64,000 bases of DNA from an uncultured Gammaproteobacteria bacterium (GCA_964518425.1 CAZFGG010000003.1:9634-73633), one strand, 5' to 3'; counted from the first letter of the stretch, positions 81 through 46,741 are shown. The notes: generated from the letters alone by a model not told the origin. Numbers and translations: made by a program.

Positions 81-854
81 CTACTCCGACGAACGGTGGA
101 CTGGCAACTCAACACGCATGACTGATCGCAAGACCCGTTCACTCCGGAGTGGCTGGTCGATCGTGTGGTGGATCATGGCTTCGATTATTTTGTGAAGGTG
201 GAGGAGCGCTGGCCGTTCCGACTGCGGCCACTGGCCAGTCCGCAGGAAGAGGAGATGATGATCATCGAGCATCAAGGCATCGACCGCCGCTTCACCACGA
301 TGCACAAATCCGTACGCTGGTTCGTAGGCCGCTAGACCTTCCAAGGGGCGGTGACATCGGCCGCAGACGTCCAGACTCGGTCGGAACCCCTCGTGAGCCA
401 AGAAGAGGCTGGCGCGTCGGAGTAAGAGTAGCCAGCGGCGACCGAGTGGCATAACGACTTCACTGGACATCTCCACCAAGCTTTGCCGGACAAGATCGTA
501 CAGTCCGGCGGTCGGTTGGGCTGGCTTGGTCATGACATCAACTAACTCGAGTAGCCACTGACTACTGACCGAAGCCACGAGGTCATCGTGGAGGACCGGA
601 AAGCGGTCAATGATGACGCTGCCGATGACCTGCTCAACCACGCGGCCGTCGGCCAGGCTGAGATCAACTTCTGTCATTGGCTCAAGCGAGCCAGCGAGCT
701 TCGAGGTGCTCTTCTTTGTCCCCCGGGCACGCACTCGTAATTGCCCGTGCTGTGGCGTCAGGACAGTTAATAATCGGTCGTGTTCACGATCGGTTGAGTG
801 ACGGAGAATAATGGCTTTGGTATGGATGACAGCCATCGAGTTACGAGAGTCCAA
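81..854 (-). CDS. recO: DNA repair protein RecO
   Basis: 257 aa; N-terminal OB-fold-like region and C-terminal CGRC zinc-finger-like motif typical of RecO; overlaps the ileS stop by 14 nt. Confidence 0.6.
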   Translation of the reverse strand: MDSRNSMAVIHTKAIILRHSTDREHDRLLTVLTPQHGQLRVRARGTKKSTSKLAGSLEPMTEVDLSLADGRVVEQVIGSVIIDRFPVLHDDLVASVSSQWLLELVDVMTKPAQPTAGLYDLVRQSLVEMSSEVVMPLGRRWLLLLRRASLFLAHEGFRPSLDVCGRCHRPLEGLAAYEPAYGFVHRGEAAVDALMLDDHHLLFLRTGQWPQSERPALLHLHKIIEAMIHHTIDQPLRSERVLRSVMRVELPVHRSSE

Positions 855-3800
855 TCGTTACTGGTCCATCAATATCGATCTGTGCTGTTTGCGTCGCCCC
901 GTCCACCGACGGCGTCACGGCTTTCGCCCGGACATCGCGTAAGAACGTTTGCGCGTAGACCTCAATGACCTTGGCGGCCATCGTCTTCGGTTCAACATGA
1001 GCGATAATCTCATCGGTCGGTTTCAGTCCGGCTGTTTTCCGCAAGGCGTTGAACTCGCGGATGAGATCGCGGAGCATACCTTCGGCCTTGAGTTCATCGG
1101 TAATGGTTGTATCAAGCGCCACATCCTCCCCCACTGCCCATTCATTTCCCGTCGGAAGTTTTTCAGTTAAGTGGATTTCTTTAACATTCAGCTCATCACG
1201 GATCACCGCATCCAGGTCTGGGCGGAGCTGTTCGGTCGTAACGACTTGCTGTAGTGGTTGGCGGACTTTCAACCCAGCTTTGGCTCGTAAACTATGTCCT
1301 TGTTCCACGACCCGACGGGCCAGGGCCATGTCGGCAACCAACCGTTCATGCATCTCCCCCACTTTGGGCCAATCTTCGAGATGGACCGATTCCATTTCAC
1401 CACCAACCAGGTGATACACATGGTCGGCGAGGAACGGCGTAAACGGCGCCATGAGTTTTGAGAGCTTCAAGAGTACGTGCTGCAGCATGGCGCTGGCCAA
1501 CGGCGCTTGGTCGCCCTTGAACCGATCGCGCGACCGCCGAACATACCACGTCGATAAATCAGTCACAAAGGCTCCGATGGCCCGGGCCGCACCAGTGATA
1601 TCATAGTGCTCAAGTCGTTCGGTCACGTCTTTTGTCAGCATGTTGACCATCGAGTGAATCCAACGGTCGAGTGGGTGCGTCGCCTGTTCCGGATCGGTGG
1701 TTGGACCTTGGTACAGTTGCCAGAAGCTGACGACGTTCATCAAGATGAGAAAAGTTTTTTTTACACCGTCATCAACAATTTTCGTGTCGAAATTTTTTGG
1801 ATCCCAGGGCTGATTCGTGGTGTACATGAACCAGCGCAAAGCGTCAGCCCCATGCTTGTCGAAGAGCTCATTCAAATCACCATAATTCTTGAGCGACTTC
1901 GATAGTTTGCGTCCTTTGGCATCGTTGAGGTGTCCGAGGACAACTACGTTTTCGTATGAGGCGTGCTTGACGACCTTGGACTTCTGCAGGAGCGTGCTGA
2001 TCGCTAAGAGCGTGTAGAACCAGCCACGCGTTTGGTCAATCGCTTCGGAAATATAGTTGGCCGGATAGGCTTTGCCCGCATCAATACTTTCCTTGTTCTC
2101 GAATGGATAATGGTATTGCGCGAACGGCATAGCACCCGAATCGAACCAAGCGTCCCCGACTTCCGGGATCCGTTTCATGGTCCCCTGGTGACATTTCTGA
2201 CAAAGCCATGTCACACCGTCAATATACGGCCGATGCGGATCAAAACTGCCGTCGAGTTGCAGCAGACCACCATGGAATTTCAGTTCTTCTGGTTGCCCAT
2301 ACGGCACGTCTTCGAACCGCGTGAGCGTCGGAATTGATTGAAGTGATGTCGCCCATTTTGTCACGAGGATCGGGTCAGCGTGCGTAACAATAACGAATGT
2401 CTTGCCTTCATGGTGAGTATCGAGATCAGACAAGAAACTGATCATCCGTCGGCGAATATCTTTCCACGTTTCTCCACCCGGCGGCGCATCGTCTAAACGC
2501 TTGGCGCGATCACCAAATTTCTCATGAAACTCTTCGATCGTTTTTTCTTCGTAGGCCGGGCCGATGTGGTATTCGTTGATGGCTGTTTCTTCAGTGACGG
2601 ACAGGCCAAGTACTTCCGCATAGATTTCAGCCGTCTCTTTGGCGCGCAAGAATTGTGAAGAGTAGAGCCCATCAACTGATTCTTTTTTCAGTTTTTCAGC
2701 ACCAGCCTTGGCTTCCGCCCGACCTGTGTCAGTCAACGGATATTTCTGGGTATTCGTCAATTCGGTATTCAGCTTGTGTTCAAGATTGAGATTCGACTCT
2801 CCATGCCGGACAAAGAAATACCTGTTGCGTGTCGGCAAATGATCCAATAACTCTTGGTATGAGCCAAGACATTCTTGATGGGCACAATCCTGATTATCAC
2901 ACTGCCAAATCGGCAGCGGTGTCCCCCAATACCGTTCACGCGAAATCGCCCAGTCTTTGACTTCGCGCAGCCATTCGCCAAACCGACCTTCTTTAATGTG
3001 ATTCGGGTACCATTTGATGCTCTCGTTATTCTTGATCAGATCATCACGAAGTTTCGACATCATGATGAACCACGTCATTTTGGCGTAGTACAACAATGGA
3101 TGTTTACACCGCCAGCAAAACGGGTAATCGTGTTTGTACTTCTCAACCTTATACAATTTCCCGTGTTCTTGTAGCCAAGCGATAATTTTTTGTTGCGTCT
3201 CCCCTGCTGGGTCTTTGACTTCTAATCCAGCCCAGGGTTTCACTAAATCATTAAACTTACCAGTAAGGTCGACCGTATGAACTTTCGGCAAGTCGAGTCG
3301 CTGGCCAAGCTTGAAGTCGTCTTCACCATACATCACAGCCGTGTGGACGATGCCTGTGCCGTCTTCGGTCGTGACGAAGTCTGCCTCGGCAATGTAATAG
3401 GCTTTCTTACCTGACTCTTTCGATAAATCAACGAAGTCGAAAAGTGGCCTGTATGCTTGCCCGAGAATTTTTTTGCCCGGAAAACTTTCGACAATTTCAT
3501 GATCACCATTAAGTTTGTGAAGCAACGCTTTGGCAATAATCACGAACTCATCTCCTGACTTAACTTTGATGTATTCAATATTCGGATCAATCGCTAAGGC
3601 GACATTCCCCGGTAATGTCCACGGTGTCGTTGTCCAGGCCAGAACAAAAGTTCCTGGTTCATCGATCAGTTCAAATTTGACGTAGACAGAATCTTCTTCA
3701 ATGTTCTGATATCCTTGCGCCACCTCGTGACTCGACAAGGCCGTGCCGCAGCGCGGACAATACGGCACCACCTTGTAATCCTGTTCCAGTAATTTCTTAT

Positions 3801-4329
3801 CCCAAATCTGCTTGTAGATCCACCACAAGCTCTCAATGTATTCCGGCTGGTAGGTAATGTAGGGATGGTCCGTGTCCAGCCAAAAACCAACGCGCTCAGT
3901 CATCTTTTCCCACAAGTCCTTATACTTCCATACGGATTCTTTGGCCTTGGCGTTGAATTTCTCGATCCCGTACTTCTCGATATCTTTCTTGCCGGAAATG
4001 CCTAAATCTTTTTCGACCTCTAATTCAACGGGCAACCCTTGGGTGTCCCAACCGGCTTTCCGTTCAACGTGAAATCCCTGCATGGTTTTGAACCGCGGGA
4101 TAATGTCCTTGAAGGCCCGGGTTTCAACGTGACCAATGTGCGGAATACCGTTGGCTGTCGGCGGTCCGTCATAAAACACAAAGTTGCCCTGGGGTGAGGA
4201 CTTGGCTAAGGTTTTCTTGAAAATGTCCTTAGCGGCCCAGTCCTTCAGGATCTCTTCTTCGAGTTCGGGGAATTTGGGGATGGGCATTAGGGCAATCGAT
4301 GAACGGTACTGATGGCGATGATTAGCCAA
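841..4329 (-). CDS. ileS: Isoleucyl-tRNA synthetase with an inserted histidine-phosphatase (PGAM-like) domain
   Basis: HIGH motif (PHIGHVETR), KMSKS motif (KLSKSL), WGTPLPIW and DAWFDSG editing/catalytic signatures; 1162 aa, about 200 aa longer than typical IleS. Confidence 0.9.
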   Translation of the reverse strand: MANHRHQYRSSIALMPIPKFPELEEEILKDWAAKDIFKKTLAKSSPQGNFVFYDGPPTANGIPHIGHVETRAFKDIIPRFKTMQGFHVERKAGWDTQGLPVELEVEKDLGISGKKDIEKYGIEKFNAKAKESVWKYKDLWEKMTERVGFWLDTDHPYITYQPEYIESLWWIYKQIWDKKLLEQDYKVVPYCPRCGTALSSHEVAQGYQNIEEDSVYVKFELIDEPGTFVLAWTTTPWTLPGNVALAIDPNIEYIKVKSGDEFVIIAKALLHKLNGDHEIVESFPGKKILGQAYRPLFDFVDLSKESGKKAYYIAEADFVTTEDGTGIVHTAVMYGEDDFKLGQRLDLPKVHTVDLTGKFNDLVKPWAGLEVKDPAGETQQKIIAWLQEHGKLYKVEKYKHDYPFCWRCKHPLLYYAKMTWFIMMSKLRDDLIKNNESIKWYPNHIKEGRFGEWLREVKDWAISRERYWGTPLPIWQCDNQDCAHQECLGSYQELLDHLPTRNRYFFVRHGESNLNLEHKLNTELTNTQKYPLTDTGRAEAKAGAEKLKKESVDGLYSSQFLRAKETAEIYAEVLGLSVTEETAINEYHIGPAYEEKTIEEFHEKFGDRAKRLDDAPPGGETWKDIRRRMISFLSDLDTHHEGKTFVIVTHADPILVTKWATSLQSIPTLTRFEDVPYGQPEELKFHGGLLQLDGSFDPHRPYIDGVTWLCQKCHQGTMKRIPEVGDAWFDSGAMPFAQYHYPFENKESIDAGKAYPANYISEAIDQTRGWFYTLLAISTLLQKSKVVKHASYENVVVLGHLNDAKGRKLSKSLKNYGDLNELFDKHGADALRWFMYTTNQPWDPKNFDTKIVDDGVKKTFLILMNVVSFWQLYQGPTTDPEQATHPLDRWIHSMVNMLTKDVTERLEHYDITGAARAIGAFVTDLSTWYVRRSRDRFKGDQAPLASAMLQHVLLKLSKLMAPFTPFLADHVYHLVGGEMESVHLEDWPKVGEMHERLVADMALARRVVEQGHSLRAKAGLKVRQPLQQVVTTEQLRPDLDAVIRDELNVKEIHLTEKLPTGNEWAVGEDVALDTTITDELKAEGMLRDLIREFNALRKTAGLKPTDEIIAHVEPKTMAAKVIEVYAQTFLRDVRAKAVTPSVDGATQTAQIDIDGPVTIGLS
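2217..2832 (-). other. Inserted histidine phosphatase / phosphoglycerate-mutase-like domain inside ileS (about aa 500-705)
   Basis: FFVRHGESNLN (RHG catalytic motif), LTDTGRAEAKAGAEKL, ETWKDIRRRM, IVTHADPI (second catalytic His). Lies between WGTPLPIW and DAWFDSG, where canonical IleS has only about 60 aa. Confidence 0.65.
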
Positions 4330-6827: not shown

Positions 6828-7727
6828 CTAAGCGCCAGTTCTTGAGGTATTCACTAGGGGGACCTCGATACGTCGGTGAACGGCCTCCCCAAACATCGCG
6901 CCTTCGCCGCTCATCCATACTTTTTCCGGCACCGCCTTGTAGATCCGCCGGGGATGCTCGCCGAGATAATTTTGGACATCGCCAGAAGTGGTGTTCTCGC
7001 GACCATAGTAGAAGAGCAAGGCCTGAGCGATTTCCCGCTCATCGGTTACTTCCTGGGCGCCCCCCTGGACATAGACACCCTCACCGGTGCCTTCTGTCGC
7101 CGTTGAATCGTACAGCACAAAAAATATTTTCGGGTTATGACGGATATTTCGGGAGTGTTGACTATCTCGATCCGATACCCAGTAAAAATTATACGCGCCG
7201 TCGTGGGCGGCGTAGACCGGGGAATTCCATGGCTGTTCCATTTCGTCGACCGTCGCGACAGTAATATAAATAACCTTCTCAATAATCTCTTTTGCTTTTT
7301 TTAACAATATGTCACCGCGGGGTACATCGACTAAGCCAGAGCGGCCCTGCACTCCGTCATCCTGACGGTCATCTTGAGAAGTGTAACTGTTCCTCGAGGT
7401 GTCATCGAGAAGTTTAAACTCGACGACCTTGATCATCGTTTCCATCGTCACCCGGTTGCCGTAGAAGTCACGATAGTGCTGGAGCATCTCAGCCATATCA
7501 CGGAACTTTTCGTGGCCAAGAAAATCCGGTTCGCTGATGGCCCCAAGTTGTTTCTCTTTGATATCAACAATTTCCGCTGTCGCGAAAACCTTACCGGTTT
7601 CCCACTCAATGAGTTCAAGGTGGTCGCCGACGGTCAGATTTTTGTCGTCAAATAACCGCCAGGTGACAGTTTTTTGTCCGTTCAGAATAAGTCGGGCCAG
7701 GTTAGTTCTAAACTTCAGCGTTTTCAT
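6828..7727 (-). CDS. ASCH domain fused to a pyridoxamine-5'-phosphate-oxidase-like (PNPOx/FMN-binding split-barrel) domain
   Basis: Likely start MKTLKF at 7727, 8 nt after the argS stop (the longer ORF to 7856 would overlap argS). N-terminal ASCH-like (ILNGQKTVTWRLFDD...ELIEWETG); C-terminal PNPOx-like (ITVATVDEMEQPWNSPVYAAHDGAYNFYWVSDRDSQHSRNIRHNPKIFFVLYDS). Confidence 0.55.
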   Translation of the reverse strand: MKTLKFRTNLARLILNGQKTVTWRLFDDKNLTVGDHLELIEWETGKVFATAEIVDIKEKQLGAISEPDFLGHEKFRDMAEMLQHYRDFYGNRVTMETMIKVVEFKLLDDTSRNSYTSQDDRQDDGVQGRSGLVDVPRGDILLKKAKEIIEKVIYITVATVDEMEQPWNSPVYAAHDGAYNFYWVSDRDSQHSRNIRHNPKIFFVLYDSTATEGTGEGVYVQGGAQEVTDEREIAQALLFYYGRENTTSGDVQNYLGEHPRRIYKAVPEKVWMSGEGAMFGEAVHRRIEVPLVNTSRTGA

Positions 7728-7735
7728 GGTCACAG

Positions 7736-9376
7736 TTACATTTTTTCCGGCGCCGACACGCCCATGAATCCTAATGTCTGAGCGAGAATACGTTTCGTCG
7801 TGATGACGAGGTCTAATCGGTGTTTCCAGACCTGTTCCTGATCGATCACCCGGCAATTGGTGTAAAATTCATGGAATTTCGTGGCTAGATCAACGGCGTA
7901 AAACGACAGTTTATGGACTTCATAGGTCCGCCCGATTTCTTCCACCAGTCGCGGAAAGTATAGCAGTGATTTCACTAAATTCAACTCCGACGTGTGCGGG
8001 TGTTCTGGGCTGGCGACGACTGGCAGCTTCTTGGTCTTGGCCAGGATACTGGCAATACGGGCGTGGGCATACTGGACATAGTAGACCGGGTTTTTGTCAG
8101 ATTTTTCTTTGGCCAGAGTCAAATCAAAATCCATGTGGGTATTGGCGCTATGCATCAGGAAAAAGAAGCGCGCCACATCGAGGCCGACCTCATCAACGAG
8201 TTCTTCGAGCGCGACGTACGTTCCGGCTCGCTTTGACATTTTCACTTCCTGACCATCTTTCATTAAGCGCACGAGTTGGACGATTTGGGCTTCGAGTTTA
8301 TGGGCAAAACCTAAGGCGGCCATGGCCGCTGTTAAGCGCGGGACATATCCGTGATGATCGGCGCCTAAAAAAATAATTTCACGGCTGACACCCCGTTCGA
8401 CGAAGCGATTATACCGTAACGCGATGTCCGATAAGAAGTAGGTTTTCTCGCCATCCGCTTTGATCAGCACACGATCCTTGTCGTCACCGAAGGCCGTCGT
8501 CCGAAACCAGATCGCCTTATCTTTCTCGTAGACTAAGTCATGATTACGGAGGAGTTGTAATACTTTCTGATCGAGCTTTTTGGCTTGCAACGTGCTTTCC
8601 CGGAACCAGGTATTGAACTTTACGCCGAGCTTCTTCGTCACGACGCGTTGCAGCTCGGCAATCATCAGGTTGAGGACGCGGCCTTTAATTTTTTCCCGCA
8701 AGGCCGCAACGTTACCAACCTTGTACATGTGGAGCTTCAATTTTTTGGCCAATTCACCGACATAGTCGCCCTGGTACAGGTTCTCCGGATAGTCCGTGGC
8801 AACCCCTTGTTGTTGCCAGTATCGTCGCAACACTGACTCAGCTAAAATGTTGACCTGATTGCCGACGTCATTCAAATAGTATTCTCGCCAAACCTTCCAG
8901 CCGTTCATGGCTAGAATATTCGATAGCGTGTCACCGGCGAAGGCACCACGACCATTTCCCAGGGTCATCGGGCCAGTTGGGTTAGCGGAAATGAATTCTA
9001 CCAGGACTTTTTTTTCTCCGCCGATTGTTGATCGGCCAAATTTCTTGTCAGCCAATATTTCTTTGACTTGTTTCATCAACCAGCTCGCCTTGAGCGTGAA
9101 GTTGATAAACCCCGGTCCGGCCATTTCTGCTTTCTCGAGTGTCGGGGCAAGATTCCCCAACTGGGCGATCAGATGCTGGGCCACATCACGCGGTTGTTCA
9201 TTGAGCTGCTTAGCGATTTTCAAGGCGACGGTTGAGGTGTAGTCGCCAAATTTCGGCTCGCTCGTCGGTTCAATCGGAATCTCAACCTCACCCGCCTTGG
9301 GGTAGGCCTTGGTGATGGCACGTTGGAGAAGTTTCCGGAGGTGCTGGTCAGGCAGGGTCATGAAAGAAGTATACAC
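7736..9376 (-). CDS. argS: Arginyl-tRNA synthetase
   Basis: 546 aa; class I motifs (ANPTGPMTLGNGRGA HIGH-like; MSKRAG KMSK-like); DALR anticodon-binding C-terminus. Confidence 0.9.
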   Translation of the reverse strand: MYTSFMTLPDQHLRKLLQRAITKAYPKAGEVEIPIEPTSEPKFGDYTSTVALKIAKQLNEQPRDVAQHLIAQLGNLAPTLEKAEMAGPGFINFTLKASWLMKQVKEILADKKFGRSTIGGEKKVLVEFISANPTGPMTLGNGRGAFAGDTLSNILAMNGWKVWREYYLNDVGNQVNILAESVLRRYWQQQGVATDYPENLYQGDYVGELAKKLKLHMYKVGNVAALREKIKGRVLNLMIAELQRVVTKKLGVKFNTWFRESTLQAKKLDQKVLQLLRNHDLVYEKDKAIWFRTTAFGDDKDRVLIKADGEKTYFLSDIALRYNRFVERGVSREIIFLGADHHGYVPRLTAAMAALGFAHKLEAQIVQLVRLMKDGQEVKMSKRAGTYVALEELVDEVGLDVARFFFLMHSANTHMDFDLTLAKEKSDKNPVYYVQYAHARIASILAKTKKLPVVASPEHPHTSELNLVKSLLYFPRLVEEIGRTYEVHKLSFYAVDLATKFHEFYTNCRVIDQEQVWKHRLDLVITTKRILAQTLGFMGVSAPEKM

Positions 9377-9568
9377 AAAAAAACCCTTGCCGTCCGCCGC
9401 TTACGGTTCGACGCCACCGCCCTCGGCAGACTATGGTCAGTGTCCCGCGCTGTCATCCCGAGCCCGTGCCGAAGGCGCGGGCAAGATTTGCCGCCAGGCA
9501 AAGATTGGCGTCGAGGGAACAGCGCGGGGCTCACCATGACAAGAATAAGACTATGCTACACTTTCCCC

Positions 9569-10015
9569 ATGCCCTCCTACGCCACGAACCGCGACGCCCA
9601 CCACGACTACACCGTTCTCGAAAAAATCGAGGCCGGTATTTCGTTGACCGGACCGGAAGTAAAATCTATTAAGGGCGGCAATCTCAGCCTGAAAGGAAGT
9701 TACGCTACCGTCACTCACAACGAACTCTGGTTGATCAACGCCCATATTGGGTTGTACAAACCCGCGGCTAGCGTTAAACAAGAACCGACGCGCTCACGCC
9801 GCCTCCTGGTCCGCCGCGCGGAGATCGATCGCCTGATCGGCAAAATGCACAGCGCCGGTTTAACCTTGGTACCGCTATCGGTCTATAGCAAGAACGGCTT
9901 AGTTAAAGTTGAGCTGGGCCTGGCTCGCGGAAAAAAAGCCTACGATAAACGGCAGAGTATCAAGAAACGGGAAGTTGAGCGGAAGATCAAACGAGCGATG
10001 AGGGTGAAGGCATGA
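9569..10015 (+). CDS. smpB: SsrA-binding protein SmpB
   Basis: ATNRDAHHDYTVLEKIEAGISLTGPEVKSIKGG... matches the SmpB N-terminus; the start was moved to the internal ATG at 9569 (the ORF track begins at 9323). Confidence 0.85.
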   Translation: MPSYATNRDAHHDYTVLEKIEAGISLTGPEVKSIKGGNLSLKGSYATVTHNELWLINAHIGLYKPAASVKQEPTRSRRLLVRRAEIDRLIGKMHSAGLTLVPLSVYSKNGLVKVELGLARGKKAYDKRQSIKKREVERKIKRAMRVKA

Positions 10016-11219: not shown

Positions 11220-11622
11220 GGGGATGTTCAAACGTCGATCGATCGTTGATAGCTCGATTGGTATCATGCCGAACCGCCGACAACTTCGTAAAAATGTCGG
11301 ACATGATAAGTGCCAATACACTTCTCAGCAAACTTCGGACCGCGGTAGCTCGCGCTTTCGCGACCCCGTCGTTTGTTCCCGCCTTCGCTTAATACCGTTG
11401 GCGCATCCGTCTCCTGACTCCGGTTAGGGAATCACGGGTGTCACTTCACCGGACCGATTGGTAGACCGTTCAGTCCTAGCAATCGGTATTGTCTGAACAC
11501 CGTCATCACGACTTCTCGTTCGTTGTCTACGTGGTGACGTTATCCAACAGCGGACTATGCATGTAAGACGTACTATCGGGATATCCGTCGCCACGCGGGT
11601 GCAAGACCCGCCATCTCCACCA
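11220..11622 (+). ncRNA. ssrA: tmRNA (SsrA)
   Basis: Immediately downstream of smpB. 5' GGGGAUG pairs with 3' CAUCUCC followed by ACCA (11612-11622). T-arm-like GCGGG-UGCAAGA-CCCGC. Internal tag reading frame ends ...ATPSFVPAFA-TAA, like the Mycoplasma-type long tags that end AFA. 5' UUCAAACGUCGA resembles the conserved tmRNA UUCGACG. Confidence 0.6.
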
Positions 11623-25525: not shown

Positions 25526-26170
25526 CTAATAATCCAATCCCCTGGTCGCAATAATCCCCTGGTAGTAGGGGTGCTTGATCATTTTCATCTCTGTCACGAG
25601 GTCTGCGTATTTCAGCATCCACGGAATTTTTTTGTGTCCGGTCCAGATGAGGTGGATATTCTTGGCTTGCTTGTCTTTCCGTCGGTCCTTCAGAAATTGT
25701 TCAACGGGTTTGCGTTCCAACAACTTTTCCTCAACCGCTGATCCGAGTTCGTCGAGAATAACGAGTTGGAATCCACCGCGAAAAACTTTTTCCCGGGCGA
25801 CGTCGAGGGCGTGCAAAGCCGCGCCCTTATGTTGCTTTTCGGCTTTACGGTCATTGAGAATCTTGTACCATCCTTCACCCATGACCTGAACTTCAACGCC
25901 AAGTTTTTTCAAGCTCGTCCGCTCCCCGCTCGGCCACTTGGCTTCTTTCATGAACTGTAAAAAAAGCACTCGCCAGCCATACCCAGCGGCCCGAACCGCC
26001 GTCCCGACCGCCGCCGTGGTTTTGCCTTTGCCGTCACCAATATACGCATGGGTCAGGCCGTGGTCAGCGGGACGGAGTTTTTTTGGAGCGCGAGGTGGCA
26101 TACATTCGTCGTCCTGAGGCTTACGAAGGACAATGTTGTCGATCGTGGTTCGAGAACCTCGCCACGACAA
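25526..26170 (-). CDS. cobO: Cob(I)alamin/corrinoid adenosyltransferase (CobA/CobO/BtuR family)
   Basis: IGDGKGKTTAAVGTAVRAAGYGWRVLFLQFMK...GE and QLVILDELG motifs of the BtuR/CobO P-loop family. Confidence 0.75.
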   Translation of the reverse strand: MSWRGSRTTIDNIVLRKPQDDECMPPRAPKKLRPADHGLTHAYIGDGKGKTTAAVGTAVRAAGYGWRVLFLQFMKEAKWPSGERTSLKKLGVEVQVMGEGWYKILNDRKAEKQHKGAALHALDVAREKVFRGGFQLVILDELGSAVEEKLLERKPVEQFLKDRRKDKQAKNIHLIWTGHKKIPWMLKYADLVTEMKMIKHPYYQGIIATRGLDY

Positions 26171-27440: not shown

Positions 27441-30400
27441 TCAACTACACCCCGTCGTCGTCCCACACTCAATGCAGAGCATGCACGAGCCATTCCGTTT
27501 CATCTTCATCGAGCCACAGTTGGTACACGTATCGCCGGTAAAGCCTTGGGCTTTGGCCACGGCTGTCGTGTTGATCGGTGATGGACTCATGGCGACATTG
27601 TTGGCCGCAACATTGGCTGGTTTTTCAATGACGGCCGTACCCGGGAACTGTGCTTGGACCGGCTGATCGTCGTGGTTCGGCTTGATCTGGACGAGGTCTT
27701 CACGATTGAGGTATTCGTACCCAAGCAAGCGGAAGATGTAATCAAGAATCGAGGTCGACATCTTGATATTCGGATGGCCGATGACTGGGCCGGCTGGTTC
27801 GAAGCGGGTGAAGGTGAATGTTTCGACCAATTCTTCCAAGGGCATACCGTACTGTAAGCTCTTCGAGACGAGGATAGCGAAACAGTTGATCAACGAGCGG
27901 TAGGCCGCGCCGTCCTTATACATGTCGATGAAGACTTCGCCCAGCCGGCCGTCATTGTACTCACCGGTCCGGAGGAAAACTTTGTGTCCGCCGACCACAG
28001 CTTCTTGGGTCCAGCCGACGCGTTTCGGCGGCAACTTCTCTTTGACCGCCCGCATGGCCGCGATATTGTTGACCTGCTGCGGCGTCACTTCTGCCACGTC
28101 GTCGTCGACCGCGCCAAGGGCCGTGATCTCATCGTCATCAGAATTGGAGTTCAGGGGTTGTGATAATTTCGAACCGTCACGGTAGAGCGCCACCGCTTTG
28201 AGCATCATCTTCCACGAATCCCAGTAGACCTGCTTGACCTCTTCGATCGACGCTTCGGCCGGCATGTTGATCGTCTTGGAGATAGCGCCAGAGATGAATG
28301 GTTGAGTGGCGGCCATCATTTTGACGTGGGCATTGTAGGCGATGTAACGCTGACCCTTGGTGCCACATTTATTGGCGCAGTCAAAAATCGCGTAATGTTC
28401 TTCTTTTAGGTGCGGCGCGCCTTCGATAGTCATGGTCCCAACGACGTACTCATTGGCCAGGGTGATCTGATCTTTGGTGAAGCCAATCGTTTCAAGAATG
28501 TTTAAGGAGGGATCGTCAACTTTGACACCCAACCGATTGATGATGTCCGGGCCAAGCGTAGCCGGATTGAAGACGAAACGGATATCAAAGGCACCGTCCA
28601 GCGTCAATTCAATCTTGGCCAGGTCTTCGCCGGTCAATCCTTTGGCTTTGAGCGTTTCGTGATTGATGTGCGGGCTACCGAGCAAGGTGCCATGACCCTT
28701 ACAGTAGTTTTCGATGTCCACGATTTGCTGATCAGAGTACCCCAAGCGCTTGAGCGCTTTCGGCACAGATTGGTTGACGATTTTAAAGTATCCGCCGCCG
28801 GCAAGTTTCTTGAATTTCACAATGGCGAAATCCGGCTCAACACCAGTTGTATCGCAATCCATCAGTAGGCCGATCGTACCAGTCGGCGCGATAACCGTGA
28901 CTTGGGCGTTGCGGAAGCCGTAGTCTTTCCCCCACTGGAGAGCACGGTCCCAGGCTTCGCGAGCGGCTCGGATGAGGTACTCGGGCGCGGCTTTCGGGTC
29001 AATGCCCATGGGCGTAATGCTCAACCCTTCATATTCGCTGGCCGGGGCGTTGTAGGCCGCCCGACGGTGATTTCGAATAACCCGGAGCATGTGGTCTTTG
29101 TTCCGTTCATAGCCGGGGAAAGCGCCGAGGTGCGAAGCGATCTCGGCCGAAGCGGCGTAGGCTTCGCCGGTCATGATCGAGGTCAGTGAGCCCGCGATCG
29201 ACAAGGCTTGTGGCGAGTCGTACGGTACGCCCATCATCATCAAGACTGTCCCGAGGTTGGCGTAGCCGAGACCAAGCGTGCGGAAGATGTAGGACAAGCG
29301 GGCAATTTCTTTACCTGGAAATTGGGCCATCAGAACCGAAATTTCTAGAGTGATCGTCCAGAGCCGGCAGGCATGTTTGAATCCATCGACGTTGAAGGTG
29401 CCGGTTTCAGGGTTATAGAAATGGGCTAAATTGATTGACGATAAATTACAGGCCGTATCGTCGAGGAACATATACTCCGAACAGGGGTTCGAGCCGTTGA
29501 TCCGGCCGTCTTCCGGACAGGTGTGCCATTCGTTAATCGTCGTATCGAATTGTAACCCCGGGTCAGCGCAAGCCCAAGCGGCGTACGCGATTTCATCCCA
29601 CAGGTGCCGCGCCGGAACAGTCTTGGCGACGTCGCGTGTTGTCCGCCAGAGTAAATTCCAGGGCTGATCCCGCTCGACATTATCCATGTAGGTATTCGTG
29701 ACGCGGACCGTGTTGTTGGAGTTTTGACCGGCCACCGTCTGATAGGCCTCGTCTTCGAAGTGCGTAGAAAATGTTGGGAAGTCAATGTGATCATGGCCTT
29801 GCTCAACCAAAGCTAAACAGCGCTGGATGTAGCTGAGCGGAACGTGGCGTTGTCGGGCGTGACGGACGGCCTGGCCGAGCCGGGCGCTCTTGCGATAATC
29901 GGTGGTGTTCTCTTCGCTGGCCACGGCCATGATGACGTTGAGTTCGTGGTTGTTGATTTTGCTTCCGGCCACCAGGTCGGCGACTTTCTGTTCTTCTTCC
30001 ACTTTCCAATCAATGAACTGTTCAATATCTGGATGATCGACGTCGACCACGACCATTTTGGCCGCCCGCCGGGTCGTGCCGCCAGATTGGATGGCGCCGG
30101 CGCTGCGATCGAAGATTTTCAGGAAAGACATCAAGCCGGAACTATGACCGCCGCCGGACAATTTCTCTTCCCGGCCGCGCAGGGCCGAGAAGTTCGATCC
30201 GGTCCCGGAACCAAATTTGAACAGCCGCGCTTCACGCGTGACCAGGTCGAAAATACCGCCCTCGTTGACGAGATCATCGTTGATTTTCTGAATGAAGCAG
30301 GCGTGCGGCTGGGGGTGGGTATAGGCGTCCGTTGATTCTTTCAAAACACCGCTCTGCGGATCAATGTAGTAGTGCCCCTGAGGCGTACCAGTAATCCCGT

Positions 30401-30944
30401 AGGCCCACTGCAAGCCCGTGTTAAACCACTGCGGCGAGTTCGGCGCGCCCATTTGGCGGATCAGGGTGTGTTCCATTTCGTCCTGGTACGCTTGAGCGTC
30501 ATCGGTCGAAAAGAAATAGCCGTGTTGCTCACCCCACCAGCGCCAGGTTCCCGCTAACCGTCGGACGACTTGTTGAGCGCTTCGTTCCGGCCCAAGAATC
30601 TGGCGACCGTCGGTCCCAAGAATTGGTGAGCCGTCAACATGGACCTGGGGTACACCAGCCTTGCGGAAGTATTTCTGGGCGATAATGTCCGTCGCGACCT
30701 GGCTCCAGGTGACTGGTACCTCGACATCCTTAATCTCCTTGACGACCGTTCCATCAGGATTCTTAATGATGGAACTGCGTTTTTCATATTGCAATTGCTC
30801 GAGCGGATCCTGCCCGGCCATGGTGAACTGCCGTTGGATCTTCATCCCCGGTCCACGTTTCTTCGGTACAGCCGCAACTGGTTGATCAACCGACGCTGCT
30901 TGCGTGCGCAAGCGATCAGGAGAAGAGGTGGTGGTCGCGGGCAT
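27441..30944 (-). CDS. nrdJ: Adenosylcobalamin-dependent class II ribonucleotide reductase, long form with C-terminal Zn-ribbon
   Basis: [25 protein letters not shown]-terminus typical of NrdJ (so the true start may be M34 at 30845); NPCSEY active-site region; C-terminal [22 protein letters not shown]. Confidence 0.85.
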
Positions 30945-30984: not shown

Positions 30985-31458
30985 TTATTTGGTTGAACCT
31001 TTTCGCTTTTTTTTGGTCAGCCGGTTCAACTCATCTTTGAACGATTCAACATCTTGGAATTGGCGATAGACTGAGGCGAAACGAATGTAGGCTACCTGAT
31101 CGACCCGTTGGAGACGCTTCATGACAATCTCGCCAATCTGCTGGGAGGTAATCTCGGTCCGACCGCGGAGCTGAATGTCGCGTTCAATTTGCCCCACCAG
31201 CTTTTTGAAGGTTTGCCCAGTGATGGATCGTTTCTCCGTCGCTCGACGAAGCCCAGCTTCCATCTTCTCGCGGCTGTAGGGTTCCCGTCGGCCATCTCGT
31301 TTCATGACCGTCAGGTTCAGAATTTCGACTTCTTCGATCGTCGAAAAACGATAACCGCAGCGATCACACTCTCGGCGGCGGCGGATGGCCAGACCCTCAT
31401 CGGTCACCCGGGAGTCCATGACGCTGGTATCAGGATTGTGGCAAGAAGGGCACTTCAT
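30985..31458 (-). CDS. nrdR: Transcriptional repressor NrdR (Zn-ribbon + ATP-cone)
   Basis: MKCPSCHNPDTSVMDSRVTDEG...CDRCGYRFST Zn ribbon; ATP-cone (VMKRDGRREPYSREKM). Confidence 0.9.
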   Translation of the reverse strand: MKCPSCHNPDTSVMDSRVTDEGLAIRRRRECDRCGYRFSTIEEVEILNLTVMKRDGRREPYSREKMEAGLRRATEKRSITGQTFKKLVGQIERDIQLRGRTEITSQQIGEIVMKRLQRVDQVAYIRFASVYRQFQDVESFKDELNRLTKKKRKGSTK

Positions 31459-38455: not shown

Positions 38456-41400
38456 TTATGAGGAGGTCAGTTTATAATTGAAACAGCCACAACTCGAACC
38501 AGCTTGCGACGTGCAGGGGTTATCGGGCGGTTGCGGGCTTGGGAAGAACGTTGATTCCATATGTCCATAGAGGGAGTACGTCGAGCCATCAGAGTGGTAG
38601 AGATAGACATGGGAATTCGATGGACATTGGAACGCGTGCTGCGGTTCATTCCAGCAGGTCGAGCCATCATACCCACTAGGACAGGCCGGGCTAAAGGTAT
38701 TCGCTGGATCGGTCGACAAAGATTTATTCAGGGTTTGTCCAAGCGTCGCCTGCCAGGACGGCCAGGACGATGTGCTGAAGCCTGGTAAGTAGGTTCCGCT
38801 TTGGAGGGTCGGGTAGCTGCCGTGTAAAGTTTTGTAATTATCGAGGGCAACCTTGACCGAGGCCAGGTCCTGTCCCCGCTTCGTGTCGTTGAGAATTGCC
38901 TGCTTGGTAAAGCTATCTTGGTTGATGTTGAACATGAGCTGACTCGTCATTTGATCATAGATCTGTTTCGTCGCGTCAGAAGCATTGTTTGAGTTGTAGT
39001 CGAAGACAAACATCAATCCGGTCGGCGTGCCGCTGGTACTGACATCCGTCACACCAATGTAGGTTGTCGTGCCGGTCCGGACCGCCGGATAACCGCTGAC
39101 CGAGGTGGTCGCGGCACCAGTTTGCGTCGGGAAGCGCTGAATGAACCAGTCGTAGGGCGACAATATTTGCGGGTTGTTGAAGATCAGAATACCAATGGTA
39201 TCGCGCGATGCCTGCGATTCTTTGAAGAAAAAGCTTTTGAGCCGCGTTGGATCTTGGCTAGCTGATGCATCGATGACTGGGTAAGAGAAGTTCGGTAAAA
39301 GCTGCGTGTTGTTTTGTCCGCGGCAGTAAAAGAGTTTGAAATTCCAAGTACTATCGGTATACCCGGAGTTGGCGGGTTGACCAGGGACATCCCACGGATT
39401 GTCACAGATATCCACGTTGATATCTGTTCGCCCGGTCCGCTCAGGTTTATCGTTTTGATTGAGGCTATTGAATGTCACTTTGGCCTTGGCTTCAGCGTAG
39501 GTCTTGCCGTTGGCCTTGGCCGTAACAACGGCCGTACTGGCCAAGAGGTTTTTGGTCGTCGGATCCATAACGGCCGTCGCGACCGCGTCATTTCCCGACA
39601 GCCATGACCAGTCCCAGCTGTAGACTTGGTCAATGTTCTGCAACTGTTCGCCATTGGCGGCGTAAGCTTTGGCGACTGGCGTCGGCGCTGCGGTTTGGTT
39701 GACCGCGGTCAGGAGATAGGTGTTCTCCAGAATCCCGACGTGATCGAGCGTACAAATGTTCGCTCCGGTAGTAAATTTCAGCGGCGAACCGCCGACGTCA
39801 GCCAGAACTCCTTTATCACTACGCAGCGATGTCTGACCAGCGGTCGTCGTTAAGAAAAATTGCTGCGCCGCGCCGGCCGTCAGTAACCCTGGGCTATAGG
39901 TTATCGTCGATTGGTTATTCGCTGTCGTCAGGCCAATGCTTCCGTTCACGACCGTCGCACCGTCCTGATATCGAACCGTCGAGGGCGTGACAGTTGATCC
40001 GTCGAGGGGCGTGCTGAACGTCACTTGAGCGGCCGTGTTCCGACAGGCGTTTGGGCTGTTTTGGGGCGGCTGGAAACTGATGATCTTCGGTTTCAATTGG
40101 CAACAGCCAATTGACGCACCGGCCGGCAACGCGCAGCCGCGCGGCGCATTCGTCGCATCGTTGCTGCAGACCGCCGCGTCGCTAGCACATTGATCAGCCA
40201 AGGGGCAGCCTCCCGGACCTGAACCATTTGGATCGTTCACAAAGAAAGGCCAGGGGTTCGACTCCGCACCATCGTTCATCACCCGGACCTCGCTATCCCC
40301 TAGCCCGGCCAAAGCCGGGACGGCCGTATCAATGGTCGCCTTAGAACCAATGTCGCTCCAACTATTGTAGGTCGACATGACAACTGGGGTAGCACCAGAG
40401 ATAAGTTTCGTGACGTTCACTTGGTCCTGGGCCGTGCGCTTGGCTGGTTCATCGGCGCCAAAGCGTATGCCGGTCGCGGTCAACGAGCTGTTGGGCAGAC
40501 CATTACCCGGATTGAGGTGACAGAGTCCAGGATAGACCTTGGTATTGACGGTAAAATCATTAGGAGAGGTCGCTTGTTTGCTGTCGCCACGGGTAATTTG
40601 GACTGGGCCCGTCACGGCGTCATTCGTTGGGTCATTCGTCGGCGAATCGAGCTTCGGTACCTCCCGAACAATCCGTTCATTTTCCCAGGTGGCAGCCGCT
40701 GAACCACAAATAGTGGTATTGGGATCAAGGCCATCTTGATCGTCAGCTGCACCGGCACCGCCGAGGAAAGTCACTTTGCTCTTGGCCGTATCATATCCGC
40801 CAAACCAACACCCCTTGATTGTCGTCCATGTCCCGACGGAACCATTGTCTGGTTCGAAACCATTGACGACTGGTGTGCACGCATTATTGACACAGGTTGA
40901 GGCTGAACAGGACTCGCCGTACTTATTTTTCTTGCATTGTGAGTCGTCAGTACAGGACGTTGGGTTATACGTAATCTTGACCGTATTTGATTGTTTACCA
41001 AGTACCTTCGTGAAGACGCCTTCTTGTCCAACCGCCGGACCAGTCGGCGGGTTGGCGGCAATATTTTGGACTGGGGAGGTTCCGGTGATCGATGTTGATT
41101 GCAGATCAAAAACATGTGGCTCGCTGCTCGTCGCCGGGGCCGTCCAATCGAACGTTTCGCTTTGATTGACGATGTGACAGGCAGCATCAACGACGTTTGC
41201 CGGCAGAGCCAGGGAGAACGGCGCCTGCTGGAAGGTTGCGTCTGATTGCTGGATAACGACTCCGCTGATTTGACACCCTTGGGTACTGGTCGTGAATTGC
41301 CAAGTATACGGTGCCGACAAAGCTTTACCACCCGCGGACGGATCAGCTTTCACACCGGTCGTGATCGTTACTTGGTAGAGCGTGTTTGCCGTCAAAGGAT

Positions 41401-44991: not shown

Positions 44992-45438
44992 TCAAACCAT
45001 CCGTCCTAGCAGCTGACCACCCAAAAGATGGAGATGGACGTGGTCGACCTCCTGACCACCATGGCGACGGACGTTGAAGACAAGGCGGTAGCCATCGGTT
45101 TCAATCCCCTGCTCGGCCGCCAAGACCTTCGCTCGCCAGAGCATCCGACCGAGGATATCCTGTTGGCCTTGGGTCATGTCGGCCACTGAGGCCATGACAT
45201 GATCTTTCGGGATAATCAGCAGATGGACTGATGCTTTCGGATGAATGTCCTTGAAGGCCATCAGTTGATCGTCCTCGAACACCGTCGCACTCGGTATCTC
45301 ACCGGCCGCGATCCGGCAAAAGAGACACTCCGGATCACGCATCGTCTGCTCCGTCATCAATCGGCGGCATCGGAGTTTCTTCGGGCTCATCATCCGGCTG
45401 CTGATACCGATCAAGGCGTTCAGGCGCGACTTGACCAA
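44992..45438 (-). CDS. HIT-family (histidine triad) nucleotide hydrolase
   Basis: HVHLHLLGG HIT motif; the true start is probably MTEQTM or MRDPE (45357 or 45342), overlapping the hisS stop. Confidence 0.75.
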   Translation of the reverse strand: MVKSRLNALIGISSRMMSPKKLRCRRLMTEQTMRDPECLFCRIAAGEIPSATVFEDDQLMAFKDIHPKASVHLLIIPKDHVMASVADMTQGQQDILGRMLWRAKVLAAEQGIETDGYRLVFNVRRHGGQEVDHVHLHLLGGQLLGRMV

Positions 45439-46741
45439 TCACCGGGGCAACACCATTCGTCTTTGTCTTTTCGAGTCGTTTTTTAATCTCGCCAACCGCT
45501 TTCTTGAAATCCACAACTTCCTGGATTCCGTTCTCCATGTCGCGGATTAAAATCGTATCATCCATTAATTCTTTTTGACCGACAATCAGCGTGTACTGAG
45601 CGCCGAGTTTATTGGCCATTTCCAGTTGCTGTTTAAGTCCGTCCTTGATCAGGTTCTCCGATACCCGGATACCTTCAGATCGAAACTGCTCGAAGAGTTT
45701 CAACATTTTCTTCCGGGCCGGTTCTCCTAACTGAGCTAAGAAAATTTCCGGACGGGCAGGAGGCGGTGGATTAATTTGTCGTTCTTTGAGCTGAAGTAGC
45801 AGTCGTTCAACGCCGCCAGCAAAACCGGCAGCCGGGGTCGGACGGCCCCCGAGGTTTTCGACCAGCGTATCATAGCGCCCCCCGCCACCGAGGCTGCTTT
45901 GGCCGGAATCATCGCCGACCGGCCAGAACTCCCAGACTGTTCGGTTGTAGTAATCCAAGCCGCGGACAAGGCGCGGATTCAAGACGAAGGCGACCTCGAC
46001 TTCATCGAGATATCCAACGACTTCTTGAAAGTGCAGTTGGGAAGCTTCATCAAGATAATCAATGATCTGCGGCGCGTCGGTCAGGAGACCCTGAATGACT
46101 GGGTCTTTACTGTCGAGTAATCGCAACGGGTTCTTTTGTAGGAGTAGGCGGTGATCTTCGGTCAGCTCAGATTTTTTTGTTCGGAAAAACGCCTGGAGAG
46201 CTTTAATGTATTGTTGACGAGATGTTTTGTCGCCGAGGCTGTTGATTTGGATGGTCGTTTCAAGACCGAGCGTACTATAGATTGCTCGAGCCAACAGAAT
46301 GAGTTGGGCTTCAATGATTGGCTGGGGGGCGCCGAGAACCTCAAAACCAAATTGCCAGAACTGTCGATACCGTCCAGCCTGTGGCCGGTCATGGCGGAAA
46401 AACGGCCCGAAGTACCAGAGCTTGACCGGCTGAGGCAGGTTAAGCATGCCATGTTCGATGTAGCTGCGGACAACGCTGGCCGTTCCTTCAGGCCGCAGGC
46501 TCACGTTGTCACCGTTTTTATCGACAAAGGAATACATTTCCTTTTGGATATCTGATCCTTCCCCGACCGACCGGGTGAAGAGCGACGTGGCTTCGAGGAC
46601 CGGAGTTTCAATTCGTTCAAATCCGTACAAAGTTGCTAGAGAACGAACCGTATCAAAGAACCACCACCAGTACGGTTGGTCGGCTGGCAAGATGTCTTTC
46701 ATGCCGCGCAGCAGTTGCGGAGTAGGAGCCTCTTTAGCCAT
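45335..46741 (-). CDS. hisS: Histidyl-tRNA synthetase
   Basis: Class II motifs; GGGRYDTLVENLGGRPTPAAGFAGGVERL histidine-binding and motif-3 regions. Confidence 0.9.
   Translation of the reverse strand: MAKEAPTPQLLRGMKDILPADQPYWWWFFDTVRSLATLYGFERIETPVLEATSLFTRSVGEGSDIQKEMYSFVDKNGDNVSLRPEGTASVVRSYIEHGMLNLPQPVKLWYFGPFFRHDRPQAGRYRQFWQFGFEVLGAPQPIIEAQLILLARAIYSTLGLETTIQINSLGDKTSRQQYIKALQAFFRTKKSELTEDHRLLLQKNPLRLLDSKDPVIQGLLTDAPQIIDYLDEASQLHFQEVVGYLDEVEVAFVLNPRLVRGLDYYNRTVWEFWPVGDDSGQSSLGGGGRYDTLVENLGGRPTPAAGFAGGVERLLLQLKERQINPPPPARPEIFLAQLGEPARKKMLKLFEQFRSEGIRVSENLIKDGLKQQLEMANKLGAQYTLIVGQKELMDDTILIRDMENGIQEVVDFKKAVGEIKKRLEKTKTNGVAPVIGQVAPERLDRYQQPDDEPEETPMPPIDDGADDA

Follow-up and report, generated by a model that had tools for sequence, protein, structure and literature searches.

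What does a segment of some 200 residues do inside the gene for an isoleucyl-tRNA synthetase, where did it come from, and is the synthetase that carries it an oddity of a single genome? These questions are raised by ileS, which lies near the beginning of a 64,000-nucleotide stretch of DNA deposited under the name of an uncultured Gammaproteobacteria bacterium (GCA_964518425.1, CAZFGG010000003.1:9634-73633). We refer to the whole stretch as the window and count positions from its first letter. The source genome of this ileS belongs to the Patescibacteria, or candidate phyla radiation (CPR), and its product carries a complete histidine phosphatase within a connective peptide of an apparently normal isoleucyl-tRNA synthetase (IleRS). 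From the relatives of the domain we infer that it derives from a phosphatase gene of an argS-ileS operon, and we propose that the protein that resulted is probably bifunctional.

The gene occupies the minus strand in an uninterrupted open frame at 841-4329, which holds 1162 codons when counted from a TTG at 4329. The likely start is the ATG at 4285-4287, which places ileS at 841-4287 (from the open reading frame list, with start and stop codons checked; stop at 841-843) and gives a protein of 1148 residues, to which the equally long database protein P0008 is 100% identical. Residue numbers below are those of the 1162-residue frame, and subtracting 14 converts them to the 1148-residue protein. 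Judged from its sequence, the host enzyme is a normal type-2 IleRS whose HIGH and KLSKS motifs and CP1 editing, anticodon-binding and type-2 C-terminal domains are all intact. It scores 829.3 bits against the NCBIfam ileS equivalog model TIGR00392, above the curated cut-off of 621.4, and is a member of that family. Pfam tRNA-synt_1 matches the frame in two separated stretches (E = 2.6e-111), and Anticodon_1 (E = 1.5e-27) and the type-2 C-terminal domain DUF5915 (E = 7.7e-17) lie at 865-1668 on the same strand. Direct translation of the minus strand places an intact class I active-site HIGH motif at 4129-4140 and an intact KMSKS loop, which reads KLSKS, at 1894-1908, while the CP1 editing domain matches the structure 1wk8 (E = 3e-34). 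The closest solved IleRS is IleRS2 of Priestia megaterium (8c8v, E = 2e-241). A full-length AlphaFold2 model built from a 117-sequence alignment has a mean predicted local distance difference test score (pLDDT) of 93.0 and a predicted template modelling score (pTM) of 0.88, and compares with IleRS2 (8c8v/8c9d) at a target-normalised template modelling (TM) score of 0.84. At 1148 residues the protein is indeed about 200 longer than usual, as the initial annotation of this DNA had stated, the nearest insert-less relatives having 938-986 residues and P. megaterium IleRS2 1032. Neither GC content nor GC skew shows a discontinuity at the insert.

The position of the additional residues was defined by alignment to 8c8v. 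In a numbering that starts at the proline after the start methionine, protein residues 7-482 align with 12-477 of the 8c8v chain and residues 677-1039 with 482-849, and a loop of about four residues in 8c8v is replaced by about 194 residues. The boundaries obtained in this way place the 194-residue histidine-phosphatase insertion at frame residues 498-691 (2257-2838, minus strand), with junctions that read ...DHLP/TRNRY... and ...LLQL/DGSF.... It is flanked by two cysteine pairs, C-x4-C and C-x2-C, that form the zinc knuckle of connective peptide 3 (CP3). The first half of the knuckle, at 2884-2901 on the minus strand, contributes C477 and C482 (C463 and C468 in the 1148-residue protein). The second half, at 2191-2253 on the same strand, is where the alignment with 8c8v resumes; it consists of the canonical DGSFDPHRPYID segment and the pair C710 and C713 (2191-2202), which closes the knuckle. 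The codons of both halves were verified, and each of the four cysteines is conserved in 90% or more of 117 relatives. CP3 links the second half of the Rossmann fold to CP2; in Thermus thermophilus IleRS it binds zinc, and its topology differs among IleRS lineages (PMC7191050). The phosphatase is therefore nested in a peripheral, variable connective peptide and lies outside the catalytic core proper. In the full-length model, ten-residue blocks over the insert have pLDDT values of 80-98 with a mean near 94, and both junctions exceed 90.

Type-2 bacterial IleRS enzymes (8c8v/8c9d; T. thermophilus 1ile) share the HIGH and KMSKS motifs, CP1 editing domain, zinc-binding CP3 and DUF5915 with the window's enzyme; they differ from it in that the CP3 loop, about 4 residues long in the solved enzymes and 9-11 in the insert-less IleRS of locus L016 (within the segment ...ELREKAKISSEINDLHRPYID...), is here an enzyme domain of 194 residues. 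The initial annotation had placed the insert at 2217-2832, between WGTPLPIW (2905-2928) and DAWFDSG (2134-2154, both minus strand), and in the catalytic core of the synthetase. The insert is real and does lie between these two motifs; its site, however, is the CP3 zinc-knuckle loop rather than the core, and the bounds were off by a few codons, with the 14 canonical CP3 residues of DGSFDPHRPYID counted in, where 2257-2838 is the true range. The other motifs that it named (RHGES, LTDTGRAEA, IVTHADPI, HIGH and KMSKS) were all located, the last as KLSKS. Its view of the insert as an in-frame acquisition and not a pseudogene agrees with the single open frame, the intact host motifs and the conserved catalytic residues described below.

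The insert is a complete branch-1 histidine phosphatase of the compact PhoE/GpgP/iPSP type and of whole-gene size. Pfam His_Phos_1 (PF00300) matches frame residues 505-656 (2362-2817, minus strand) with E = 9.3e-33 and 114 bits against a cut-off of 21.7. Modelled alone with AlphaFold2, the insert reaches a pLDDT of 94.1 and a pTM of 0.92, and a Foldseek search with this model returns iPSP1 (4ij5/4ij6), GpgP Rv2419c (4qih, 4pz9) and PhoE (1h2e, 1ebb) at a probability of 1.00 and TM scores of 0.76-0.80, whereas the longer cofactor-dependent phosphoglycerate mutases (dPGMs) fit less well (TM about 0.6 on their own length). Both checks that had been proposed for the initial annotation, a hidden Markov model search for His_Phos_1 and a structure prediction, hence come out in its favour: the match is significant, and the insert folds as an independent domain alone as well as in the full-length model. 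Among solved structures, PhoE is the closest in sequence (E = 1.4e-12). With the compact branch-1 phosphatases (PhoE/YhfR of Geobacillus stearothermophilus, Rv2419c, and iPSP1 of Hydrogenobacter thermophilus) the insert shares its fold, its size (about 190-210 residues) and its catalytic residues. It is only 23-27% identical to PhoE, GpgP and iPSP1, however, and has an H-[GA]-D-P motif of its own after the second histidine; moreover, those enzymes stand alone in a metabolic context, while the insert is nested in, or shares an operon with, synthetases.

All five catalytic residues of the branch-1 signature are present on the minus strand, with RHGES at 2794-2808, LTDTGRAEA at 2710-2736 and IVTHADPI at 2368-2391, and they are conserved. 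R508 and H509 of the RHG motif (2803-2808), the latter predicted to be the nucleophile that accepts the phospho group, are present without exception in 140 of 140 insert-bearing IleRS, as are the second arginine of the phosphate pocket, R562 (2644-2646), and its second histidine, H650 of IVTHADPI (2380-2382). The predicted general acid/base, E586 (2572-2574), is glutamate in 135 and aspartate in 5 of the 140; the codons of all five residues were verified. S558 and G536 are likewise invariant in this set, and E620 and R628 occur in 139 of its members. The same catalytic set (Arg, His, Arg, Glu/Asp, His) is found in all 25 tandem, fused and free copies that were checked. Mean pairwise identity is nevertheless only 35% for the insert, against 57% for the N-terminal part of IleRS and 50% for the second catalytic half with the anticodon domain. 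Low overall identity combined with invariant catalytic residues points to selection on the latter, and the pattern is that of a fast-drifting domain whose catalytic residues are under selection.

The architecture is not peculiar to this genome. In a search with the full-length protein, about 95 of the best 120 IleRS matches carry PF00300 in addition to the IleRS domains. An exhaustive HMMER search with the insert gave 11,167 matches at E <= 0.001; among the best 150 cluster representatives, about 95 are complete or fragmentary IleRS in which the domain occupies the corresponding position, and about 50 are free-standing proteins of 160-300 residues. An insert-only word-index search had returned 7 proteins and suggested that the fusion is nearly unique; the full-length and HMMER searches expose that result as an artefact of sensitivity, and it was rejected. 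Named sources of the nested form are Candidatus Kerfeldbacteria, Uhrbacteria, Komeilibacteria, Pacebacteria and the "Patescibacteria group", and three matches bear the labels Baltobacteraceae or Marinimicrobia, which we suspect to be mis-binning. The nearest match in a genome collection is a Kerfeldbacteria metagenome-assembled genome with 70% identity in the searched region and the same gene order. In all, well over 100 independently assembled sequences (NCBI, JGI, ENA, Logan) have the nested architecture, and the names given to such proteins at NCBI are only "class I tRNA ligase family protein" or "isoleucine--tRNA ligase". As far as these sequences tell, nesting is common in the IleRS of Patescibacteria and extends across a large, old clade.

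The free-standing homologues provide an explanation for the origin of the domain. These proteins, of 189-204 residues, align with the insert from first to last residue, which indicates that the insert is a whole-gene-sized copy. Among eight of the closest ones that were examined, six are encoded next to ileS. Five of the six (P0153, P0154, P0162, P0166 and P0170) sit between argS and ileS (argS, phosphatase, ileS), the genes overlapping or being only a few bases apart, and the sixth, P0134, precedes ileS by 119 bases on a short contig; P0156 and P0164 are found in unrelated genomic contexts. The complete locus L016 has smpB pointing the other way, followed by argS (514 residues), the phosphatase (193 residues), ileS (938 residues), a small gene and recO.

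When metagenomes were scanned with the four closest free-standing proteins as seeds, 64 loci were obtained, 62 of which contain the phosphatase. The order argS, phosphatase, ileS with a free-standing phosphatase is complete in 26 loci and cut by a contig end in a further 11 (37 of the 62), the domain is nested in the CP3 of IleRS in 23, it is nested with a frameshift in one (L073), and in one the state was not assignable on a short contig. No free-standing copy beside unrelated genes was seen among the 62. In all 23 of the "free" loci in which both halves of ileS are present, the halves are 55-175 bases apart, a spacing that leaves that IleRS without an insert, so that the free and nested forms are mutually exclusive; the two were never found together in one locus of the scan. 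Where a nested locus includes upstream sequence (16 loci), argS still precedes ileS, within 100 bases in 9 of the 16. The argS/ileS context spans divergent lineages, with GC contents of 32-51% and insert identity of about 35%. The free gene is the likelier ancestor of the nested domain. In the frameshifted locus L073 (193-3138), the N-terminal part of IleRS is out of frame with the phosphatase and the C-terminal part, which may reflect decay of the gene or a frameshift introduced by sequencing.

Free, nested and insert-less states do not sort into separate groups. In distance trees of IleRS from which the insert columns had been removed, insert-less enzymes fall inside insert-bearing groups at several points, and when the phosphatase domain and the N-terminal half of IleRS are each analysed by neighbour joining, the three states are interleaved, as far as a rough distance method that gives no support values can resolve them. 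These trees are compatible with several transitions between the free and nested forms, and also with a history in which ileS alleles were exchanged and the copy that had become redundant was then lost. The insert-less enzyme of locus L012 shares 73% identity with that of the window; in this locus argS no longer adjoins ileS, and a gene for an IS200/IS605-type Y1 transposase (L012 3413-4054) lies directly upstream of ileS.

IleRS is not the only synthetase with which the domain has been joined. In the arginyl-tRNA synthetase (ArgRS) P0259 the phosphatase is fused past the DALR domain at the C-terminus, and recO comes directly next. A valyl-tRNA synthetase (ValRS), P0250 (L004 8001-11225), carries the domain after "DTWFSS...LGWPY", in a loop about 30 residues beyond the IleRS site, and the ValRS-like protein P0128 has four copies at two sites, one after "PQWF" and the others after "WWGHRIPVWY", which is equivalent to CP3. 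Two tandem copies are present in the CP3 of several IleRS of up to 1468 residues (P0136, P0151, P0158, P0185, P0214, P0159 and P0210), and in P0185 one copy has glutamine at the positions of E620 and R628. At L002 8001-10070, and also in L003, an ArgRS of 689 residues with a C-terminal phosphatase is directly followed by recO, the pre-recO position that ileS holds in the window.

What might the domain do? The initial annotation considered action on a nucleotide or phospho-substrate connected with tRNA charging, or a regulatory moonlighting role. Membership of the operon together with repeated fusion to class Ia synthetases favours a link to these enzymes, and the replacement of the free by the nested form, with catalytic residues retained, points to a selected function tied to the CPR translation apparatus. 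We consider it probable that the protein is a bifunctional synthetase, and that the operon-derived domain is an active phosphatase whose job is tied to class Ia synthetases. In such an enzyme R508, R562 and H650 would hold the phosphate, E586 would serve as general acid/base, and a phosphomonoester would be hydrolysed through an intermediate phosphorylated at H509. The role of the phosphatase would be linked to the ArgRS, IleRS and ValRS with which the domain travels, and, working alongside the synthetase, it would act on a small molecule or a tRNA end that carries a phosphate rather than as an unrelated metabolic enzyme.

Several observations weigh against this proposal. Adjacent genes can fuse without any mechanistic link between their products, and one original gene order could account for the associations with both ArgRS and IleRS. 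Each of the ValRS and ArgRS fusions is represented by one to three proteins. The metagenome scan relied on two peptide patterns of free-standing operonic proteins, and its counts, the 37 of 62 loci included, are biased to that subfamily. Two insert-less close relatives of the window's locus, L012 and L082, keep the synteny and have no phosphatase of the family within 6-7 kilobases (kb) of ileS, which shows that IleRS works without the phosphatase in cis. Finally, for every NCBIfam phosphatase or mutase family with a defined function, the insert scores less than the curated cut-off.

The last point bears equally on the strongest competing explanation, which we regard as possible though on the unlikely side: that the domain is simply a histidine phosphatase or mutase of general metabolism, whose gene sat in a constitutively expressed translation operon and was fused to its neighbours during genome streamlining. 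Candidates are a short dPGM that fills the "missing" phosphoglycerate mutase (PGM) of some Parcubacteria, a phosphoserine phosphatase, or a CobC-like nucleotide phosphatase. The best NCBIfam E-value does belong to the short archaeal dPGM model NF038349 dPGM_arch (1.2e-25), with the CobC and PspA models next. All cut-offs are nonetheless missed by a wide margin: the insert scores 90.6 bits against the 225 required by NF038349 and 36.7 against 81.7 for TIGR01258 pgm_1; 70.3 against 162.9 for the alpha-ribazole phosphatase CobC (TIGR03162); 65.6 against 350 and 39.7 against 277 for the PspA/iPSP phosphoserine phosphatase models NF045917 and NF009994; and 26.8 against 74.5 for the phosphohistidine phosphatase SixA (TIGR00249). 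Membership of the dPGM, CobC, PspA, GpmB and SixA families was rejected on these curated cut-offs.

The substrate pocket tells against a dPGM as well. What we take to be the substrate residues of E. coli dPGM are R90, Y92 and N186, arranged as R-x-Y after the glutamate and an asparagine two past the second histidine, together with a C-terminal capping tail. The insert reads E586-Y-H-I after the catalytic glutamate, with Y-H-I in place of R-x-Y, and H650-A-D at the second histidine, with aspartate in place of asparagine; the chain re-enters CP3 right past the last strand, without a C-terminal tail. Separate insertion sites in ValRS and arrays of two to four copies would be hard to explain for a glycolytic enzyme, and a nearly exclusive argS/ileS context across divergent lineages exceeds what chance adjacency would give. 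On the other side, per-gene annotation would miss a domain hidden in IleRS, and the window, which is only a small part of the genome, contains no PGM gene. Fusion of neighbouring genes comes about readily, and the domain has disappeared several times while IleRS was kept. The genome also uses adenosylcobalamin, having a class II ribonucleotide reductase and a corrinoid adenosyltransferase.

If the bifunctional synthetase is accepted, its activity can be framed more narrowly. The domain may represent a third catalytic site of Patescibacteria class Ia synthetases, working in cis where it is nested or fused and in trans where it is encoded between argS and ileS, that clears a phosphate block at the tRNA 3' end (a 3'-phosphate, a 2',3'-cyclic phosphate or a toxin-derived 3'-pyrophosphate) or processes another phosphorylated charging intermediate. 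We hold this proposal to be rather unlikely in so specific a form.

Narrower still, and quite unlikely in our estimation, is a role confined to repair, in which a blocking phosphate (3'-phosphate, 2',3'-cyclic phosphate, or the 3'-pyrophosphate of toxic small alarmone synthetases, toxSAS) would be cleared from the 3' CCA of the synthetase-bound tRNA, so that its 2'/3'-OH could again be charged. Repeated coupling of the domain to enzymes that act on the tRNA 3' end (IleRS, ValRS and ArgRS) and the conservation of its catalytic residues are in keeping with such a role. Counting against it, we know of no member of the histidine phosphatase superfamily that acts on RNA ends. With a median isoelectric point (pI) of 6.1, the nested domains are close to neutral or slightly acidic, which is not suggestive of RNA binding, and contact between CP3 and tRNA is unreported in the literature examined; the free domains range from pI 4.9 to 10.2 and track the AT content of the genome. 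The lesion itself is known, as toxSAS toxins pyrophosphorylate tRNA CCA ends and block aminoacylation (10.1101/2021.04.30.441581; PMC11559606).

A precedent for the type of fusion exists in mycobacterial RnhC (Rv2228c), in which an RNase HI is combined with a CobC-like acid phosphatase (PMC5224475; 10.1101/2022.11.09.515703) and a nucleic-acid enzyme is likewise joined to a branch-1 histidine phosphatase. Unlike the nested domain, RnhC is fused end to end, with another partner, in another lineage and without a synthetase operon. The insert matches the NCBIfam model of RnhC, NF005567, with E = 4.7e-21, below its cut-off, and an RNase H-phosphatase protein (P0003) was among the matches of the insert-only search.

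It is very unlikely that the domain has become a non-catalytic module, either a ligand sensor through which a phosphorylated metabolite tunes IleRS or a structural brace or docking surface. Histidine-phosphatase folds do serve as non-catalytic modules elsewhere, the tau55 domain of yeast TFIIIC being an example, and the rigid full-length model, with a pTM of 0.88 and pLDDT above 90 across both junctions, is in keeping with such a module. Binding-only modules usually lose the nucleophile or the acid, however, whereas the nucleophile, both arginines, the glutamate and the second histidine are kept in the 140 nested domains and in every extra tandem copy, which is a signature of retained catalysis.

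That the insert is an artefact or a selfish element is almost certainly wrong, even though the source is a metagenome-assembled genome of an uncultured lineage and L073 has a frameshift, since an uninterrupted frame without a break in composition, recurrence in more than 100 independent assemblies and the conservation of host and catalytic residues effectively refute an assembly chimera or pseudogene, and an intein-like mobile insertion was rejected for want of any Hint/intein Pfam match and of splicing-type residues at the junctions, where Cys/Ser at the N-junction and His-Asn with Cys/Ser/Thr at the C-junction would be expected.

The origin of the nested domain is well supported, and what it combines, a synthetase with an accessory domain and a known phosphatase superfamily, is familiar in its parts and was not found described in combination. 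In a full-text literature search, no account of a tRNA synthetase with a histidine phosphatase inside it or next to it was found, and among curated families none was found that covers a phosphomonoesterase fold in a synthetase. The view taken at the outset, that the architecture had not been described, is in line with this result; the sequences are public and have gone unremarked. The nearest parallel within the synthetases is the CP1 editing domain of IleRS, ValRS and leucyl-tRNA synthetase (LeuRS), likewise an extra enzymatic module at a connective peptide of the Rossmann fold; editing domains, however, cleave aminoacyl esters and are universal, while the fold inserted here is that of a phosphomonoesterase. 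Another IleRS with an enzyme domain is recognised by NCBIfam as NF040702 "ileS_w_GNAT", a class with an N-acetyltransferase domain.

Aminoacyl-tRNA synthetases rank with the most thoroughly studied enzymes. Known additions to them are editing, tRNA-binding and protein-interaction modules, from which a conserved and apparently active phosphomonoesterase differs, and it occurs in the CPR, which makes up a vast and little understood share of bacterial diversity. Should the domain act on the tRNA end or on a charging intermediate, a new quality-control or repair step would be built into aminoacylation. It is worth asking whether tRNA charging or repair in Patescibacteria includes a step that removes phosphate, and whether the "missing" phosphoglycerate mutase of some Parcubacteria is hidden inside a synthetase gene, out of sight of per-gene annotation. 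Metabolic reconstructions that allow one function per gene will overlook nested domains of this kind.

The surroundings of ileS in the window retain much of the operon block, with smpB and argS followed by ileS and recO. The ancestral operon neighbour argS (7736-9376, minus strand) encodes an ArgRS of 546 residues with the Pfam domains Arg_tRNA_synt_N, tRNA-synt_1d and DALR_1. Four or five genes lie between it and ileS, among them those for a glycosyltransferase, a CarS-like protein and an ASCH-PNPOx protein, and no second phosphatase of the insert's family is present in the 64-kb window. The conserved downstream neighbour recO (81-854, minus strand; Pfam RecO_N and RecO_C) overlaps the end of ileS by 14 bases, and the order ileS-recO recurs in loci L001, L012, L016 and L082. 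In the ASCH-PNPOx frame (6831-7856, minus strand) an ASCH domain is fused to one that resembles pyridoxamine-5'-phosphate oxidase; as listed, the frame shares about 120 bases with the 3' end of argS, and its real start is probably further in. The SmpB frame (9323-10012, plus strand) has an N-terminal extension of about 85 residues, and its true start may be downstream; a tmRNA gene (11220-11622, plus strand; 84.8 bits) follows 1.2 kb downstream of it.

Elsewhere in the window, a gene for a HIT-family (HinT-like) nucleotide hydrolase (44995-45438, minus strand) overlaps the start of hisS (45338-46741, minus strand) by about 100 bases and represents another small nucleotide or phosphate hydrolase adjoining a synthetase gene. 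The class II (B12-dependent) ribonucleotide reductase (27444-30944, minus strand) has 1167 residues and a TSCPD domain, and the match to its barrel is split in two, which may reflect another insertion. NrdR (30988-31458, minus strand) adjoins it, and the corrinoid adenosyltransferase CobA/BtuR (25529-26170, minus strand) is nearby. Two very large frames are also present on the minus strand, of 1898 residues (38459-44152) and 2255 residues (57205-63972). The former has an N-terminus like that of a type IV secretion pilin and a bacterial Ig-like domain, and with neighbouring frames that contain cohesin and dockerin domains these genes look like a cluster for surface or attachment proteins.

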